IMG/VR virus record: IMGVR_UViG_2706794690_000014
Length of the DNA stretch: 39,909 nucleotides
From: a virus
Lineage: Duplodnaviria; Heunggongvirae; Uroviricota; Caudoviricetes
Reading direction: 5' to 3' (one strand)
Positions 1,899 to 18,144 of this stretch are shown here, one piece after another. Position 1 is the stretch's first letter, and every line of letters starts with the position of its first letter. The notes below the pieces were generated by a model, which worked only from the letters and a program-made list of their open reading frames with translations, was not told the origin of the DNA and did no database searches. A program made the translations under genes and the position numbers.

Positions 1899-3986
1899 AT
1901 GTTTGCTTCAGTTAAAGAACTGGTTGGATTACCGGGGATGCCGGGAACGGAGCAAGGCGTTCGCTATTCAATCAGGAAGTATGCAACCAGCGAAACCAGC
2001 AGACGCCGCAAGAAAGGCGCTAAAGGTTTTGAATACAGCATTGACTGTTTACCTGAAGTGACACAGCAGGCATTACGCGAACGTTATGCCCTGCAACTGA
2101 TGACGCAAAAAGCCGATGAATCACCGGCTCCGGTGGTGACAAAGGCCAGACGCTCGTCTGCCGTGGTTGATGCGGTGGAGGCATATCGCGGATCACCACA
2201 ACTGATGGTCGAACGCCTCAATGCCCTGACTGAAAACCAGCGCCAGGTGGCAGACGCACGCATTGCGATCGTCAGTGAGGTGCTGAAATTCACGCAACAA
2301 CCCGGTTTCAGCTGCGCTAAAGCTATCCGGTTCCTCGTTAACAGCCTGGCACGATCACAACTGGACGAGCGCATTGTGGCAATGGTTGAGACGGCGAACG
2401 CCAAAAAGGGAAACAGCCGCGCGTTGAGTGAAATCACGCTGAAACGCTGGATTGCGGCCTTTAACAAGGCACAGAACGCCGCTGAACGCCTGCTTTTACT
2501 GGCACCGGGTAAACGCCAGGAAATAAAAGCCGAAGATATTAACTGGCTGCCCGAATTTCTGGCGCAGTATCGCCAGTCAAACGGCCGACCAATGACCGAG
2601 GCTTACGAGGATTTTGTTGCTGAATGGCAGCACCGGCACGCTGATGAGCCTTATATGCTCGATATCATGCCCTCTTATGACACCATTCGCCGCGCAATGA
2701 AGAAACTGCCGGAAGTGGTGAAACAAAAAGGCCGGGTAACTGGCAGTGAATACCGTCAGCTTGAGGGATTCACGCGCCGCGACTGGTCCAGAATGCCGGT
2801 GAATTATGTCTGGATTGGTGACGGTCACGGCATGAAGCTGAAATGCGCGCACCCGGTTCACGGGCGGCCATTCGCACCGGAAGTGACCTTTGTTATCGAC
2901 GGTGGCACGCGCTTTGTGGTGGGCTGGAGCCTTGACCTGGCTGAAAATGTTTTCGCCGTAGCCGGTGCCATACAGCACGGTATTCGCCATCATGGCAAAC
3001 CGTTTCTGTATTACTCGGATAATGGCTCCGGGGAAACCGCCGACGTCCTGGATAAGGAGATTGTGGGGATACTGCCACGACTGGGGATTAATCACCCGAC
3101 AGGGATTGCCGGTAATCCGCAGGGACGGGGCATTATCGAACGGCTTAACCGCACATTACCGATGCGCATAGCCCGTAAATACCGCACCTATTTCGGGAAA
3201 GGAGCAGATCGCGAGACGTTACGTAAAACCAACCGCGATTTACGCTCGGCATTCAGTGCCCTGCAACAGGGCAAACGGCTGAACGCCCGGCAGCAGTCAG
3301 CGATGCGTGATTTACCGTCCTGGTCTGAACTGATTGATGCCATTCGTGACGGTGTTGAGTGGTACAACAACCGGCCGCACGATGAATTACCCATGAAGCC
3401 GAACGGTAAACATTACAGCCCGGCGGAGTTCAGAAAAAAACGCCTGGCGGAAGAGGACACGGAAATTGAATGGCTGTCCGATGTTGAACTGCGGGATATG
3501 TTCCGGCCGATGGTGGAGCGCCCTGTAAGACGCTGTGAAATACGCTGGCTGAATAATATTTACTACGCGCCCGAGCTGCGTGACGAGCATGGCCGTAAGG
3601 TACTTATCAGCTATGACATTCATGATGCCGAACGAATTACCGTGCGCCGCCCGGATGGCAGCGTGATTTGCGAGGCGGTATGGGACGGCAATAAACGCGA
3701 AGCCTTCCCTGTCAGCGCGGAATACTACAAACAGCAGCAGCGCCTTAAAGGCATGCGTAAACGCGCAGAGGAAAAAATCCGTGATGCCGAGGATGAGGTT
3801 GTCAACGTGCTGGAGCACAAGCCGCAGGAGCCCTGGCTGGAAAACATATACCGCCCTGTGGGTAATACGGTGACCGTTCAGCAACCGGTCGCTGACGATG
3901 AACCTGATGAAGAATACGAGCGTAATTTCCAGCGGGGATTGCAACTGCTCGAAGCGAAATTAAAAGAAAGTGATCCGCTGGCCTGA
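1899..3986 (+). CDS. DDE transposase, MuA-like
   Basis: 695-aa ORF following ner, with an integrase-core-like region (VWIGDGHGMKL...). Size and position match Mu transposase A. Confidence 0.85.
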   Translation: MFASVKELVGLPGMPGTEQGVRYSIRKYATSETSRRRKKGAKGFEYSIDCLPEVTQQALRERYALQLMTQKADESPAPVVTKARRSSAVVDAVEAYRGSPQLMVERLNALTENQRQVADARIAIVSEVLKFTQQPGFSCAKAIRFLVNSLARSQLDERIVAMVETANAKKGNSRALSEITLKRWIAAFNKAQNAAERLLLLAPGKRQEIKAEDINWLPEFLAQYRQSNGRPMTEAYEDFVAEWQHRHADEPYMLDIMPSYDTIRRAMKKLPEVVKQKGRVTGSEYRQLEGFTRRDWSRMPVNYVWIGDGHGMKLKCAHPVHGRPFAPEVTFVIDGGTRFVVGWSLDLAENVFAVAGAIQHGIRHHGKPFLYYSDNGSGETADVLDKEIVGILPRLGINHPTGIAGNPQGRGIIERLNRTLPMRIARKYRTYFGKGADRETLRKTNRDLRSAFSALQQGKRLNARQQSAMRDLPSWSELIDAIRDGVEWYNNRPHDELPMKPNGKHYSPAEFRKKRLAEEDTEIEWLSDVELRDMFRPMVERPVRRCEIRWLNNIYYAPELRDEHGRKVLISYDIHDAERITVRRPDGSVICEAVWDGNKREAFPVSAEYYKQQQRLKGMRKRAEEKIRDAEDEVVNVLEHKPQEPWLENIYRPVGNTVTVQQPVADDEPDEEYERNFQRGLQLLEAKLKESDPLA

Positions 3987-7563: not shown

Positions 7564-8078
7564 TGTTCTTTAAAACATCAAACCCTTCCGCGCTGGCTGC
7601 GTGGCAAAAATACCAGCAGGACTGCCAGAAAGTTAAGGATGAGGCAAAACGCCTTGAGGCCGTGCTGAATGTTGCGTGCCGGTCGGTATTTGTATCCGGT
7701 ATCAGTGGATTTTACTTTAAGGGACTGCGTTTTACGGAGGACAAATATCCTTTTCATCGCGACTTATGGCGAAAACCGACTGCGTCGAATGGCTGGAGCT
7801 GCACACCGCGCACATCACGTATCCCTAAAACCCTGCGTGTTGCCTCTGATGAACTGAACAGTCTGTGGCGTGAATATTCGCCCGTCACGTATGCCAGAAC
7901 CGATGCGCTGTTGTTCTGGTTGGGTATTGATTTCTCGGCAATCCTGTTTGGCCCTGTGAAGTGGTTCTGCGTTGACGATGTGATTTACCTTCAGTGCGGC
8001 GTAAAACCCGCAAAACAGAAAATGACCGAAATACTGTCTGATGAGTTTTATGCTGCTGAAAAGCGAGTCAGGGGGTGA
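7563..8078 (+). CDS. Hypothetical early protein
   Basis: 171-aa ORF translationally coupled to the upstream gene (TAATG overlap). Confidence 0.45.
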   Translation: MFFKTSNPSALAAWQKYQQDCQKVKDEAKRLEAVLNVACRSVFVSGISGFYFKGLRFTEDKYPFHRDLWRKPTASNGWSCTPRTSRIPKTLRVASDELNSLWREYSPVTYARTDALLFWLGIDFSAILFGPVKWFCVDDVIYLQCGVKPAKQKMTEILSDEFYAAEKRVRG

Positions 8079-8081
8079 TGC

Positions 8082-8633
8082 ATGATGAAATTACAACCCA
8101 TGGGACTAAAAGGTCGCGCCCCCGCTCATGTCCGTCCGTGGACACCTGAAGAAGATGCGCTGCTGATTGCGCTTTATTCATCCACCCCGGTTAAGGATAT
8201 TGCTGCCAGAATAAAAAGAACTGTCTGGGCTGTATATAACCGGACTGGTGTATTGCGCAGTTCATACCCGGAGTTACTGAAATATAAACACCCAAGATTT
8301 ACACCTGATGAAGATAAGTTTATTCGAAAAAATGCCAGAACAATGACCTGCCAGCAAATGGGAGAATATCTCGGACGTAATAAAGATTCTGTCAGATGTC
8401 GGGCAGGAATGATTGGTGCTGGATTAACAAAGTGCGGAGAGTTACGCCCCGGCACGCGCATATCTGATGATGATGTACGTCTTATACGTGAGCTGCGTGA
8501 TTCCGATTACCCACGCCGTCTGTCATTCCGGGAAATTGGCGAAAAGTTTGGAATATCTGAACATTCTGCTCACGCAGTTTATTACCGTCGCCGGACTGCC
8601 GAGGACGCTGTATTACGGGAGTTAACGCCATGA
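8082..8633 (+). CDS. Putative DNA-binding protein with two Myb/SANT-like repeats
   Basis: Two repeats with the W/F-TP-EED signature (RPWTPEEDALLIALY and RFTPDEDKFIRKN), plus a C-terminal HTH-like segment (LSFREIGEKFGIS). Confidence 0.45.
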   Translation: MMKLQPMGLKGRAPAHVRPWTPEEDALLIALYSSTPVKDIAARIKRTVWAVYNRTGVLRSSYPELLKYKHPRFTPDEDKFIRKNARTMTCQQMGEYLGRNKDSVRCRAGMIGAGLTKCGELRPGTRISDDDVRLIRELRDSDYPRRLSFREIGEKFGISEHSAHAVYYRRRTAEDAVLRELTP

Positions 8634-8962
8634 TAACGACCTTATTTGTTGAATCAGATGAACCTCTTGTGTGTGCCGCCGGAATGCCGCTCTGTGGCGG
8701 AACGCTGACCGGCGTTTATTTCGGGGATTTGCGCGGTTATCCCTGGCATTCACTGGATGACGCATTTCCGCCTGATATGGAGGCTGTCGTGCTGATTGTT
8801 CAGTATGGTGACCAACAGGAACTGCGCATCGGCCATATGGGGTATGAAGGCTTTTTTATTGATGAAGAAACCGGAGCCTGCCTTGAAGATGAGGACGGAC
8901 AGGTGACGCACTGGTGCCATCTTTCGGCCTTGCCGGAATTACAGGGGATACATAATGGATGA
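8630..8962 (+). CDS. Hypothetical early protein
   Basis: 110-aa acidic ORF, coupled to the upstream gene by ATGA overlap. Confidence 0.4.
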   Translation: MITTLFVESDEPLVCAAGMPLCGGTLTGVYFGDLRGYPWHSLDDAFPPDMEAVVLIVQYGDQQELRIGHMGYEGFFIDEETGACLEDEDGQVTHWCHLSALPELQGIHNG

Positions 8963-9098
8963 GCAAATTGTTGAATGTCCCACCTGTGGAAATGAGGACC
9001 CGGAGTATCTGAAAGAGTGCCCACATTGTGGTGAGATAAAATGTAACCACTGCGATATGGGCGACGACACTGCATGTATAAATTGTGAGGATGAATAA
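8955..9098 (+). CDS. Small Cys-rich zinc-ribbon protein (47 aa)
   Basis: MDEQIVECPTCGNEDPEYLKECPHCGEIKCNHCDMGDDTACINCEDE: four Cys pairs. Below the ORF-track size cut-off; found by reading the gap. Confidence 0.4.
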   Translation: MDEQIVECPTCGNEDPEYLKECPHCGEIKCNHCDMGDDTACINCEDE

Positions 9099-9099
9099 T

Positions 9100-9387
9100 A
9101 TGGAAAAAGAAATCAAATTTGCGCCTAAATCTATCGACGAAGAACTGGCTAAAATCGGCATGCTTGAACGTATGCGGGACATTATCGAATATGCGATAAA
9201 AGAAAATCTTGCAGCCAGAGAAGCCCTTTTGATAATGGAGCGGGAGATTAACCTGATTAAGGATGCTGTATCTCTGGATAATAAAATAGCCCGCGAGGAA
9301 TACGTTCGCCGTAGGCTCGGTGTTGATGGTTCAGCAATTCTTACATCTGAACATTATGCAAAAATTTTTAATCTTTTTCAGCGGTAA
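9100..9387 (+). CDS. Hypothetical early protein
   Basis: ATG at 9100 with GAGGA 8 nt upstream (MEKEIKF...); predicted helical. Confidence 0.45.
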   Translation: MEKEIKFAPKSIDEELAKIGMLERMRDIIEYAIKENLAAREALLIMEREINLIKDAVSLDNKIAREEYVRRRLGVDGSAILTSEHYAKIFNLFQR

Positions 9388-9607
9388 TCCCCATACAGGC
9401 CCGGAGATTGTCGAAATGCCAGTCGGTATTAATATATGAGCCATCCTGGATATCTTCTGCATTTTCCGGGGTAGAGTTTTTTTGAGCGAGATTGATAATA
9501 TGTATTGCCTCCTCACGGGAAATCAGCCCCTTATCGAACAGGGTTACCATAAGATTTCCAGCCATTGTGAATGCGGCAACATCAAGTGCATTTTTTATAT
9601 CTGACAT
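9368..9607 (-). CDS. Hypothetical protein, reverse-oriented within the early region
   Basis: 79-aa minus-strand ORF with balanced composition and an AAGGA RBS 8 nt before its ATG; overlaps the 3' end of the 9100-9387 gene convergently. Confidence 0.45.
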   Translation of the reverse strand: MSDIKNALDVAAFTMAGNLMVTLFDKGLISREEAIHIINLAQKNSTPENAEDIQDGSYINTDWHFDNLRACMGITAEKD

Positions 9608-9635
9608 AGATTTTTCCTTTTATGTTAATTGACAT

Positions 9636-9664
9636 GGCGGTGCGGTAACACCGCCCATTTTTTA
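9636..9664 (+). terminator. Rho-independent terminator-like hairpin
   Basis: Stem ggcggtg/caccgcc with loop cggtaa, followed by a T6 run (9658-9663); lies just upstream of gemA. Confidence 0.5.
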
Positions 9665-9677
9665 TGGAGCCACGATA

Positions 9678-10190
9678 ATGAATCGCGCTTCCCTGATTAC
9701 CTTAATACATGTCGCAAAACGCGATCTACAGCTTGACCATGATACCTATACATCCGCGCTGCTGGCAGCCACCGGCAAATCCAGTTGCCGTGATATGTCA
9801 CCCGGTGAGTTATCCCGCGTGCTGGATGTTTTCAAAAAACGCGGTTTTAAAGTGCGTCAGAAGCCGGTTAACCGGGCCTTAAAACCGGGTACGGTGACCG
9901 CCAAAATTCGCGCCATCTGGAAAGTGATGCACCGGCAGGGATTTATCTCTGATGGCGGGGAAACGGCCCTTAACCGCTGGGTGAAATCGCAGACGGCCGC
10001 GCAGAACGACGGCGAAGGTGTGGCTAACTGGCAGTGGCTGGAGCAACAACCCGCGCTGGCCTCTGATGTGCTGGAGCGTCTCAAACGCTGGCACCGCCGC
10101 AAAATGCTGGCAGCCCTGGATATGTCGGAACGTGCAGTGATGAGTTATGAGCGTGTTTGCAGGCTGTATGAAAAATCATTCCCCCGTTAA
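9678..10190 (+). CDS. gemA: GemA-like regulatory protein (Mu gp16 family)
   Basis: 170-aa ORF with a LI.LIHVAKR..L.LD..TY N-terminus and RAIW motif typical of Mu gp16; located immediately before the Mor/C gene. Confidence 0.7.
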   Translation: MNRASLITLIHVAKRDLQLDHDTYTSALLAATGKSSCRDMSPGELSRVLDVFKKRGFKVRQKPVNRALKPGTVTAKIRAIWKVMHRQGFISDGGETALNRWVKSQTAAQNDGEGVANWQWLEQQPALASDVLERLKRWHRRKMLAALDMSERAVMSYERVCRLYEKSFPR

Positions 10191-10194
10191 CCCC

Positions 10195-10225
10195 AAATCC
10201 CGCCACAGCGCGGGATTTTTATTTT
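10195..10225 (+). terminator. Rho-independent terminator
   Basis: 9-bp stem aaatcccgc/gcgggattt with a 6-nt loop, followed by ttattttt; directly after the gemA stop. Confidence 0.6.
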
Positions 10226-10260
10226 AAACTTGCCCTGTGTAATGATGACCGGAGGCGGGT

Positions 10261-10683
10261 ATGGCTGAAACACAGATGAGCATGTTTGGTGACAGCGAAC
10301 AGCTGCACGCGCTGATTGACCGTCTGGATGATATTCCTGATGATGAGCTGAAAAAGAACTGGCCCGGCACGCTGCGGGACCTGGTTGATGTGATCAGTGC
10401 TGAACTGCACCGTCAGGGGATTGAACCTGCTCAGGCGGGAATGCTTGCCCGTAAGGTTGCAGCCGCACAGGCCGGGTACATGGGCGGGCGTGGTTATTAT
10501 CTCCCGGTCGGTGAATCCCTTTTCACCGAACTGCGCAATAATGAAATTTTTTCCCGCTGGAGCCAGGGCGAAAAAATTGAAACCCTGCGCCGCCACTACC
10601 AGATGTCAGAGACGCAGATTTACTCCGTTATCCGCAACCAGCGTCGCCTGCATCAGGAACGCACGCAGCCACGGCTTTTCTGA
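10261..10683 (+). CDS. Mor/C-family late transcription activator
   Basis: 140 aa with a C-terminal HTH (MSETQIYSVIRNQRR); sits between gemA and the lysis genes as Mor/C do in Mu. Cannot tell Mor from C. Confidence 0.7.
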   Translation: MAETQMSMFGDSEQLHALIDRLDDIPDDELKKNWPGTLRDLVDVISAELHRQGIEPAQAGMLARKVAAAQAGYMGGRGYYLPVGESLFTELRNNEIFSRWSQGEKIETLRRHYQMSETQIYSVIRNQRRLHQERTQPRLF

Positions 10684-10754
10684 TATTCCGCAAATCCTGC
10701 CCCCTTTTCCTCACGGTTACGCTGACTCAGAGAACACCATGAGACAGCGTAACA

Positions 10755-11255
10755 ATGCCAAAACTCCCCGCACCCCTGCGTAAAAAGCTGATTGCCCTTG
10801 TTCTGGCCGGAGCCGGGACGTTCACCATTGCCACGCACTACACCGGCTACTGGGAAGGGAAAGAAAACACCACGTACATTGATCCCACCGGCACCCCCAC
10901 CATCTGTTACGGCCATACCGGCCCGGATGTGAAACCGGGGATGACAAAAACTGATGAAGAGTGTCTGGAGCTGCTGGAAAAGGACATGAAATGGGCCTTT
11001 GCGGCTATCGATCGTCATGTTCAGGTGCCGCTTACCCGTGGTCAGACGGTGGCGCTGGCCTCCTGGATTTTCTGGGCCGGTGAAACGAACTTTCGCAACT
11101 CCACGCTCCTGCGCCTTATCAATGCCGGGCAGATGCCCGCGTCCTGTAAGCAGTATATCCGCTGGATTTATTCAAAGGGGGTAAAACTCCCCGGTCTTGA
11201 GGCCCGCCGTTCGGCGGATGAATGGTTATGTCGTTACGATTTGCCGAAAGTCTGA
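10755..11255 (+). CDS. lys: Endolysin (phage lysozyme) with N-terminal SAR-type signal anchor
   Basis: Catalytic E-x8-D-x5-T pattern (WEGKENTTYIDPTGTPTICYGHT); weakly hydrophobic Gly/Ala-rich N-terminus (LIALVLAGAGTFTIATHY). Confidence 0.8.
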   Translation: MPKLPAPLRKKLIALVLAGAGTFTIATHYTGYWEGKENTTYIDPTGTPTICYGHTGPDVKPGMTKTDEECLELLEKDMKWAFAAIDRHVQVPLTRGQTVALASWIFWAGETNFRNSTLLRLINAGQMPASCKQYIRWIYSKGVKLPGLEARRSADEWLCRYDLPKV

Positions 11256-16829: not shown

Positions 16830-18144
16830 TTTAGGTTATGCCGCCACGCTTCCCTCAAAAGAGACGGTGGCATACTTCCGCGCCAAAGGGGCGCATATCA
16901 GCTGGAACTGGTTCGAAACAGACGCGGATGTTCATGCCCGCTCATTCACGGCAGCAAAAACGGCACGGCTGGATGTGGTAACCACATTACAGGCCGAAGT
17001 GCAGCGGGCCATTGATGAGGGGATTTCACAGAAAGAATTTATCCGCACACTGACGCCACGCCTGCAAAAGCTGGGATGGTGGGGAAAGCAGATTGTGGTG
17101 GACAGCGACGGTAACGCGGAAGAAGTGCAGCAGGGCAGTCCCCGTCGTCTGGCGCTGATTTACAACGTGAACACCCGTGTGGCTTACAATGCCGGGCGTT
17201 ACACGCAGATGATGAACAACACGGACACGCATCCGTTCTGGCAGTATGTGGCGGTCATGGACAGCCGTACCCGCCCGTCGCATTCCGCCCTTAACGGTCT
17301 GGTATTCCGCTATGACGATCCGTTCTGGAAAACACACTACCCGCCCAATGGCTGGAACTGCCGCTGCCGTGTGCGGCCATTGTCTCAGGCCCGTCTGGAT
17401 GCAATGGGGTTATCCGTTTCATCCGGTGAGGATCATCTCTCCACCCGCAATGTTGAGGCTGGCGTGGATAAACAGACCGGAGAAGTCAGAGAAATGCCGG
17501 TGACCACATATTCAGATGGCGCCAGAACCATGACACCGGATGTGGGCTGGTCATATAACCCCGGCTCGGCAGCGTTCGGCACAGACCAGGCGCTGATCCG
17601 CAAACTGATCGAGGTGAAAAGCCCGGCGTTACGGGAAATGGTGGTTCAGGAGATGAACAACAGCCCGGAGCGGCAGCTGGCGTTCCGCATCTGGGCAAAA
17701 AACATCATGCAGACCCGGCGAGGTGGTAACGATATCCGCACGCTGGGCTTTATGACTGAAAGCATTGCGCAGGCAGTGGAAAGCCGGACGGGAACGCCAC
17801 CGGCCCGCCTGCTGGCGATGAGCGGTAAAAATGTGCTCCATGCGGACAGTGTGAAACATCAGAATGACGGCATCGCTCTGACGCCGGAGGACTTCGGGCG
17901 CTTACCGGCAATGCTGGCAAGGCCAAAAGCGGTACTGTGGGACAAACGGCACAACAATCTGATGTATATCGTGGAAAATCAGGATGGCAGTGTGCAGATT
18001 GCCGTTAATGCACCGTACAGTCTGAAACGTCAGCCCGACAAACTGGATGTGATTGTGAATGCTTACCGGGTTATCAATATGGATAAGCTGAAATCGGATA
18101 TCCGGGGCGGAATGCTTGAGGTGCTGGAAGGACAAATTGATTAA
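16813..18144 (+). CDS. Head morphogenesis protein (Mu F / gp30-like)
   Basis: Conserved core DSRTRPSHSALNG...NGWNCRCRV typical of the phage Mu F family. Confidence 0.8.
   Translation: MAQGIDLGYAATLPSKETVAYFRAKGAHISWNWFETDADVHARSFTAAKTARLDVVTTLQAEVQRAIDEGISQKEFIRTLTPRLQKLGWWGKQIVVDSDGNAEEVQQGSPRRLALIYNVNTRVAYNAGRYTQMMNNTDTHPFWQYVAVMDSRTRPSHSALNGLVFRYDDPFWKTHYPPNGWNCRCRVRPLSQARLDAMGLSVSSGEDHLSTRNVEAGVDKQTGEVREMPVTTYSDGARTMTPDVGWSYNPGSAAFGTDQALIRKLIEVKSPALREMVVQEMNNSPERQLAFRIWAKNIMQTRRGGNDIRTLGFMTESIAQAVESRTGTPPARLLAMSGKNVLHADSVKHQNDGIALTPEDFGRLPAMLARPKAVLWDKRHNNLMYIVENQDGSVQIAVNAPYSLKRQPDKLDVIVNAYRVINMDKLKSDIRGGMLEVLEGQID

Follow-up and report, generated by a model that had tools for sequence, protein, structure and literature searches.

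A leftward gene ahead of gemA in an Escherichia coli Mu-like prophage as a putative copy of phage Mu gene 15

The early region of a Mu-like prophage of Escherichia coli includes a 79-codon open reading frame (ORF79) that lies between a homolog of Mu gp14 and gemA and is read leftward, against the early promoter Pe. We analyzed this ORF in the virus record IMGVR_UViG_2706794690_000014, whose full length of 39,909 nucleotides (nt) is called the window here and supplies all coordinates unless another record is named. ORF79 is, judged by position and sequence similarity, most probably the copy of phage Mu gene 15 in this prophage. Its product matches the family phrog_32893 of the PHROG database along its full length (residues 1-79 on profile positions 1-82), and profile comparisons tie this family to Mu gp15. 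The gp15 family is small, confined to enterobacterial Mu-like phages, and functionally uncharacterized; its Mu member has stood in annotations for two decades.

The reversed gene and its relatives

The features of the locus are as follows; coding sequences (CDSs) called by PGAP, results of a position weight matrix (PWM) scan, and minimum free energy (MFE) folds are named as sources where they apply.

9100..9387, plus strand: homolog of gp14 (Mu E15), from the ORF list and a PGAP CDS; phrog_6075, E 6e-44
9368..9607, minus strand: ORF79, 79 amino acids (aa), ATG start, homolog of Mu gp15 (Mup15); phrog_32893, E 1.3e-45
9477..9483, unstranded: T7/A7 homopolymer inside ORF79, codons 42-44, read from the sequence
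9615..9619, minus strand: Shine-Dalgarno sequence AAGGA of ORF79, 7 nt before the ATG at 9607-9605, read from the sequence
9622..9649, minus strand: weak candidate for a leftward promoter, GTTACC-16-TAACAT, whose -35 element falls in the hairpin loop, inferred only, from the PWM scan
9636..9655, plus strand: GC-rich stem-loop GGCGGTG-CGGTAA-CACCGCC, from a scan for terminator-like sites and from MFE and centroid folds
9658..9663, plus strand: T6 tract after the stem-loop, from the terminator-like site scan
9666..10190, plus strand: gemA with a GGAG ribosome-binding site and its start codon at 9678; Pfam GemA, E 1.8e-28

The gp14 homolog, whose start is placed at 9085 in the ORF list and at 9100 by PGAP, is the last plus-strand gene before ORF79 and its convergent partner, and the 3′ ends of the two genes overlap by 20 nt (9368-9387). 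On the other side, the start codons of ORF79 and gemA lie 70 nt apart with the genes pointing in opposite directions. The stem, the T6 tract, and the gemA ribosome-binding site all fall within this spacer, and the T6 tract ends 14 nt before the gemA start codon. A sequence-only reading of this DNA had described both a 79-aa minus-strand ORF that has its own ribosome-binding site and overlaps the upstream gene, and a plus-strand hairpin with a T6 tract before gemA. Each description agrees with what we find.

In PHROG, Mu gp15 belongs to phrog_8747 and the corresponding ORF of phage D108 to phrog_38610. Cross-hits tie both to the family of ORF79: Mu gp15 matches phrog_32893 at 6e-4, and P0015 matches all three PHROGs. 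The query alignment used for hhalign represented the window-type subfamily and contained no Mu sequences, so the profiles had no sequences in common. With this alignment, the window type was matched to the Mu type at 97.1% probability (E 7e-11, 54 columns) and to the D108 type at 96.4% probability (E 1.4e-9), a homology that covers only the N-terminal 44-54 residues, or the N-terminal two-thirds. Searches of genome contigs with ORF79 and with P0011 as queries gave no further relatives.

Mup15/gp15 (NP_050619.1) is recorded in RefSeq NC_000929.1 as a hypothetical protein encoded by an 88-aa ORF on the minus strand at 7896..8162, and the 1991 record of the Mu left end lists gp15 as a putative 134-aa ORF. 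Like ORF79, the Mu gene points leftward between gp14 (E15) and gemA, its 3′ end overlaps gp14 (by 62 nt in Mu and 20 nt here), and a spacer of ~70 nt with the same GC stem-loop precedes gemA. Both proteins are small and acidic to near-neutral, and they are homologous in an N-terminal helix-turn-helix-like region of ~54 aa. However, they are only ~18-21% identical overall and fall in different PHROG families, their C-terminal halves are unrelated, and the DWHLDNL sequence of ORF79 is absent in Mu.

In D108, the gap between gene 14 and gemA holds a 119-aa minus-strand ORF (GQ357916.1 7853-8212, stop included) that has a core motif in common with ORF79 (BLASTP E 2e-6) and resembles it in position, orientation, and accompanying hairpin. 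The D108 protein differs in carrying a very acidic N-terminal extension of 30 aa and a different C-terminus. Phage SfMu has been described as having four leftward ORFs, with a maximal overlap of 62 bp between orfs15-16 (PMC4406740), which corresponds to the gp14/gp15 overlap of Mu.

Further lineages were recovered through exact-protein look-ups. A leftward gp15 between a gp14 homolog and gemA is present in the window, Mu, D108, and eight metagenome or genome lineages, and the arrangement of Mu recurs in D108, SfMu, and at least 10 diverged lineages. The order of a gp14-like gene, a reversed gene, and gemA holds in the loci L005-L011, L015-L016, and L018, and it is kept even where the early region differs, for example where DUF3164 replaces Gam, gp11, and gp12. 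The sequence-only reading had proposed an independently expressed insert. Part of this proposal stands, in that ORF79 is a genuine coding gene and lies on the opposite strand, so it would need transcription of its own. The gene is not a private insert, however, given homologs of Mu gene 15 in at least 10 lineages.

The surrounding element is readily recognized as Mu-like. Positions 9300-9700 match six complete E. coli chromosomes at 100% identity, and the neighboring genes encode a Mu-type transposase, a MuB-like ATPase, Gam, GemA, Mor, lysozyme, and Mu-type head proteins. PGAP annotates ORF79 in identical E. coli prophages as hypothetical protein WP_001280088.1. Its annotation of an identical prophage also shows how far the remainder of the early region is on the plus strand, as had been claimed: all other CDSs between the gene for a Ner-like helix-turn-helix (HTH) protein and the head genes are on that strand, the exceptions besides ORF79 being a gene in the repressor position and a “tRNA-OTHER” feature. 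The latter (-) is placed at ~17881-17965 (L004 20582-20666), between a head-morphogenesis and a virion-morphogenesis gene; ARAGORN finds no tRNA in the window. No Rfam family reaches its gathering threshold in the region or in the whole window. At the left end of the prophage in E. coli DETEC-S792 (L004 1443-2837), the host gene is annotated as a hydratase pseudogene that lacks its C-terminus, which is consistent with a Mu-type insertion into a host gene.

Coding status of the minus-strand frame

Antisense ORFs of 91 and 108 aa also occur nearby, and the length of ORF79 alone is therefore not beyond chance. Both ORF79 and the hairpin are taken as real because they are conserved in relatives, not because of length or count. 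An 85%-identical copy of the gene in an Stx1-phage record differs at 27 nt, and from this comparison the ratio of nonsynonymous to synonymous substitution rates (dN/dS) is 0.23 in the ORF79 frame versus 0.6-1.5 in the other five frames. The ratio between Mu gp15 and the copy in L018 is 0.41 and is again lowest in the minus frame.

More distant homologs, at 20-40% identity, carry the same imprint. An exhaustive HMMER search returned seven further cluster representatives at 37-49% identity, and the Mu-type and D108-type proteins emerged from a profile search. The N-terminal motif FD.AAFT.AGN...L..KG.IS.EEA..II is kept in homologs at 29-44% identity, the C-terminal motif DWHLDNL.A is kept within the window-type subfamily, and the alignment gaps among homologs are whole codons. 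A Shine-Dalgarno sequence (AAGGA, GAGG, or AGGAG) stands at the corresponding place in 10 of 10 lineages, and AT skew flips sign across ORF79. The minus-strand ORF is open end to end in every lineage, whereas plus-strand ORFs in the same interval are inconsistent in length and frame. On this comparative evidence, ORF79 is a genuine protein-coding gene.

Some copies are interrupted. The rare clusters P0005 and P0007-P0010 shift into the -1 or +1 frame after K43 or nearby, at or close to the A7 run (9477-9483), and read on into an overlapping 61-aa frame (9331-9516), thereby losing the conserved C-terminal motif. Because intact forms dominate (33 and 32 member sequences), these variants more likely reflect decay or sequencing error than a second, alternative product.

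The middle of the gene is hypervariable between variants. Codons 37-56 (9440-9499), which form the low-confidence linker of the structural model described below, are identical at 43 of 60 nt, compared with 51-60 of 60 in every other 60-nt block of 8600-10099. There are eight amino-acid changes in 14 codons here, for which either relaxed constraint or diversifying selection could account. We also considered ultra-conservation of the 5′ half of gp15 and the spacer, which are ~98% identical between variants, and set it aside given that many neighboring blocks are likewise conserved.

The reference annotations of Mu and D108 tell a different story. In the current GenBank record of Mu, AF083977.1, gp15 (2869-3135 on the minus strand of L001, our extract of that record) has given way to Mu_54, a 55-aa CDS on the plus strand (L001 2933-3100), and the D108 records annotate nothing at the 119-aa homolog (L002 2366-2725, minus strand). 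It could be argued from these records that the minus-strand ORF is a noncoding shadow and that what really lies here is a short plus-strand gene like Mu_54 or an untranslated spacer ending in a terminator. The plus-strand orientation of the other early genes would fit such an account, as would the failure to find a minus-strand promoter. However, Mu_54 itself occupies the codon register antisense to gp15, where shadow ORFs usually occur, and it belongs to no PHROG family. The longest plus-strand ORFs of the window in this interval are 39-46 aa and unrelated to Mu_54. Because the minus-strand ORF is always open, with conserved motifs, in-frame indels, and the lowest dN/dS, while the plus-strand ORFs change length and frame from lineage to lineage, the comparative evidence favors gene 15 over Mu_54, and we consider a noncoding shadow highly improbable.

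The stem-loop ahead of gemA

The stem at 9636-9655 consists of seven base pairs, six of them G-C, closed by a loop of six and followed by the tail CATTTTTTAT. It has the form of an intrinsic terminator, in that the GC-rich stem has at least five pairs, the loop is short, and the T-run begins no more than 2 nt past the stem, and it is present in both the MFE and the centroid structures. The scan found three terminator-like sites in comparison with 2.0 ± 1.6 in shuffled sequences, a count not above chance, and the intergenic fold has z = -1.4.

The hairpin was found in 12 of the 12 lineages examined. Its stem reads GGCGGTG-N6-CACCGCC in Mu, D108, and all other lineages with gp15, with variant stems in L009, L017, and the L020/L022 type. 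In an alignment of 11 sequences, 77 of 77 cells pair on the plus strand, with two compensatory pairs and three G·U pairs, versus 74 of 77 on the minus strand, where there are three A·C mismatches; the sample of related sequences is small, which makes this covariation supportive rather than conclusive. Because the G·U pairs and compensatory changes fit the plus strand only, the alignment points to a structure probably formed in plus-strand RNA, and not to a DNA palindrome or a structure of gp15 mRNA.

Most lineages have a T-rich tail after the stem. The window, L017, and L022 have T5-T6, and others have TTTCTTTT, ATTTTTAA, or TCTTTCC. The Mu tail is CCCTTTCC, with no real T-tract. The strength of the terminator may therefore vary between phages, being predicted as strong here and weak in Mu. 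Thus, when the sequence-only reading named this hairpin a terminator, it was right about the form present in this prophage, but the label does not extend across the group, in which the stem is conserved and the T-tract is variable.

The position of the hairpin also constrains what it can do. Mor is required for the lytic program of Mu, and antitermination is not known in this phage. Because mor, an essential activator gene, lies downstream, termination before gemA cannot be complete. Complete termination there would require a further promoter for gemA and mor.

These considerations raise the question of whether the hairpin is mainly a terminator at all. It might instead be a 5′ stem-loop that stabilizes or processes gemA mRNA, or a palindromic protein-binding site comparable to t9.2 for Mor. 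The conservation of the stem without the T-tract fits such roles, and so does placement: the hairpin precedes the gemA ribosome-binding site by 10-25 nt in almost every lineage, even when gp15 is deleted, and a “semi-early promoter” feature of AF083977.1 (8151-8217) covers exactly this stretch in Mu. Nevertheless, the hairpin of L017 precedes a DUF2786 gene rather than gemA, the G·U pairs speak for RNA over a DNA palindrome, most tails are still T-rich, and no conserved promoter was found upstream of the stem. We therefore regard a role other than termination as possible but doubtful.

The t9.2 element of Mu, which overlaps the middle promoter Pm, provides the nearest comparison. Like the gemA hairpin, it is a GC stem-loop with a T-run at a transcription-unit boundary in the Mu early region, and its terminator hairpin lies inside an annotated promoter feature, just as the gemA-side hairpin of Mu lies under one. 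The gemA hairpin differs in sequence and position, and its analysis pointed to neither activator binding nor a promoter. Mor binds the dyad of t9.2 at Pm. A site on the gemA hairpin for an activator of the Mor type was considered and rejected, because, measured against the Pm sequence, it lies at an unsuitable distance from both start codons.

A second plus-strand terminator-like hairpin occurs at 10195-10218, consisting of AAATCCCGC-CACAGC-GCGGGATTT and followed by TTATTTTAAA (10195-10228). Because it stands directly after gemA, that gene is bracketed by two hairpins. Here mor starts 70 nt past the gemA stop (10190-10261), and in Mu gemA and mor overlap. An extra gene of 145 aa lies between gemA and mor in L016, which suggests that the gemA-mor junction is a second exchangeable position.

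Linkage, dispensability, and possible role

A gp14 homolog accompanies gp15 in 10 of 10 lineages, including Mu, D108, and seven others besides the window (phmmer E 1e-11 to 1e-33), and the 3′ overlap between the two genes ranges from 4 to 98 nt. The spacer between gp15 and gemA measures 68-74 nt in 9 of the 10. In L017, where two extra genes separate the pair from gemA, gp14, gp15, and the hairpin remain together. From this pattern of inheritance, gp14 and gp15 appear to be a two-gene convergent module that travels as a unit.

The module is nevertheless far from universal. Only 6 of 32 IMG/VR loci whose GemA is 84-100% identical to that of the window carry ORF79, and among complete E. coli genomes, 231 have the gemA type of the window and only 13-20 have ORF79. 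Three alternatives occupy the position before gemA. The first (L020 1026-1436, minus strand) is a leftward 136-aa gene of phrog_585 with a sub-threshold match to DUF2513, followed by a similar hairpin. The second (L022 1430-1500) is a deletion remnant of the same 136-aa phrog_585 gene in which the hairpin has been kept. The third (L031 1018-1501, plus strand) consists of forward genes of 65 aa and 98 aa (phrog_17269) with no hairpin, and no other arrangement is as frequent among complete E. coli genomes. Its 98-aa gene overlaps the start of gemA, and by eye the hydrophobic N-terminal stretch of the encoded protein is likely a membrane segment. Both gp14 and gp15 are absent from the L020 and L031 types. 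The position before gemA thus holds exchangeable cargo.

Two plaque-forming Muviruses of Yersinia, vB_YpM_3 and vB_YpM_23, have gp14 and gemA but no match to any of the three gp15 types. In vB_YpM_3 (L052, MT374852.1, 811-860), gp15 has been cleanly deleted: the gp14 stop runs directly into the sequence that flanks the hairpin on its left, with hairpin and gemA both preserved. Because these phages form plaques without it, gp15 is dispensable for plaque formation and lytic growth, and gp14 is not strictly dependent on gp15. A strict toxin-antitoxin pair, which co-occurrence in all 10 lineages might bring to mind, is rejected on the same two phages. The sequence-only reading had held that absence of the ORF from otherwise syntenic relatives would count against the gene. 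It is indeed absent from most relatives with the same gemA type and from the two Yersinia Muviruses, but this absence shows a gene that is dispensable, not one that is unreal.

In the short metagenome contig L014 (358-512, reverse-complemented), a frame break follows gp15, the hairpin, and ~16 gemA codons, after which comes a second gemA-like start (…LIRLIHVARRE…). This arrangement points to a recombination joint within the gemA 5′ end.

The protein itself offers few clues. The ORF79 product is acidic, with an isoelectric point (pI) of 4.5 (4.3-5.8 in the family), and has no membrane segment or signal peptide. An AlphaFold2 model contains four helices at a predicted local distance difference test score (pLDDT) of 80. 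No Pfam or NCBIfam domain matches the product, a profile search of the PDB gave nothing below E 0.005, and a fold search of the PDB and BFVD returned only generic helical matches with no informative neighbor. Matches of family members to SHOCT-like and HTH_7 domains were dismissed as insignificant (E > 0.05; SHOCT ~0.06; one member each). PADLOC-DB defense profiles gave no family at E ≤ 1 for the ORF79 product and four homologs. The earlier statement that no function can be assigned therefore holds for both the sequence and the predicted fold.

How, then, might a gene in this orientation be used? ORF79, as the copy of Mu gene 15 in the “semi-essential” part of the early operon, may work as follows. 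Because the gene opposes Pe, gp15 would need a leftward start of its own, located within the 70-nt spacer or a short way past it. Antisense transcription from Pe would pass through gp15 and suppress it. Because Pe transcription crosses the gene in this way, gp15 would most likely be expressed when Pe is quiet, either in the lysogen or just as an infection begins. As a small acidic helical bundle without DNA-binding or membrane features, gp15 would most likely act through contact with another protein, for which gp14 and a host protein are the foremost candidates. The T6-tailed stem-loop of this prophage would be a partial intrinsic terminator that dampens the Pe transcript just before gemA and mor, and it could also be the 5′ hairpin of a separate gemA transcript. 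This is the interpretation that we favor, with moderate confidence.

Several observations weigh against it. No convincing or conserved leftward sigma-70 promoter was found by a consensus scan, a PWM scan over 10 lineages, or an alignment of gemA 5′ regions. The only leftward match of the consensus scan, CTGCCA-18-TATCAT (9768..9739), lies inside gemA and is not conserved in Mu-type sequences. The PWM candidate that has its -35 element in the hairpin loop turns up in the corresponding position in 5 of 10 lineages, with scores of 3.6-8.2 bits, but it would leave a leader of only ~10 nt and is not reported by the consensus scan. There is no minus-strand terminator after gp15 in 8600-10800, and a literature search found no study of gp15 or data on its expression. 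The protein-binding mode of action is guessed from composition and size, the fold matches being generic, and viable phages that keep gp14 without gp15 weaken a strict gp14-gp15 antagonist model. Regarding the hairpin, the T-tract is poorly conserved though the stem is conserved, and a strong terminator ahead of gemA and mor is awkward given the need for Mor in lytic growth. The replacement of gp15 by Mu_54 in AF083977.1 must be set on this side as well.

A more specific version of the favored interpretation treats gp15 as a moron expressed from the prophage, made in the lysogen to protect the host or prophage through superinfection exclusion or another anti-phage effect. Morons are independently transcribed accessory genes inside phage operons and have been described for lambdoid phages. 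Like them, gp15 opposes or interrupts an operon, is patchily distributed and dispensable, deviates in composition, and is replaced by other cargo in relatives. Its GC content belongs to a block, 8920-9640, of 40-43% versus 50-60% in the flanks. An orientation against the repressed early promoter and the hypervariable middle of ORF79 would suit such a gene. In addition, Mu prophages have been reported to express early-region genes at a low level, and lysogens to show gem effects (PMC3820752).

On the other hand, no promoter or terminator belonging to gp15 is identifiable, there is no PADLOC match, and the protein lacks the membrane segment or signal peptide typical of most exclusion proteins. 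The low-GC block includes gp13 and gp14, which are ordinary early genes. Also unlike a moron, gp15 is inherited with gp14 rather than alone, and it is old and widespread in the Mu group rather than a recent addition. We consider the moron version rather unlikely.

Alternatively, gp15 might be a partner or regulator of its neighbors. It could modulate gp14, for example by neutralizing leaky gp14 in the lysogen, or it could control gemA and mor, whether by means of its protein product or by way of transcription that is convergent with or antisense to the Pe transcript. The constant company of gp14 and gp15 with their 3′ overlap, the loss of both genes in the L020 and L031 types, the intact pair of L017 at two genes' distance from gemA, and the conserved length of the divergent 70-nt spacer are all in keeping with a partnership. 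However, viable phages have gp14 and gemA without gp15, prophages with 85-100% identical GemA lack gp15 (showing that GemA is independent of it), and the acidic protein has no recognizable DNA-binding domain. This alternative seems to us unlikely, and slightly more so than the moron version.

A bolder proposal is that gp14, the reversed gp15, and the hairpin constitute an unrecognized developmental checkpoint of Mu-type phages, or that gp15 founds a new exclusion or counter-defense family. As a checkpoint, leftward expression in the lysogen would let gp15 neutralize gp14, a host target, or a target of an incoming phage. Once induction occurs, colliding transcription from Pe would shut gp15 off, and the stem-loop would meter the transcript reaching gemA and mor, thereby timing the early-to-middle switch. 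We rate this proposal as quite improbable.

Taken by itself, ORF79 is ordinary, being one more copy of an uncharacterized small phage gene. For Mu specialists, the comparison supports gene 15 over Mu_54 in the reference record and reveals a homolog in D108. It also describes gp14 and gp15 as a convergent pair, together with a conserved stem-loop before gemA whose predicted strength as a terminator varies. More broadly, the exchangeable position before gemA is a reasonable place to seek accessory, defense, and counter-defense genes in transposable phages.

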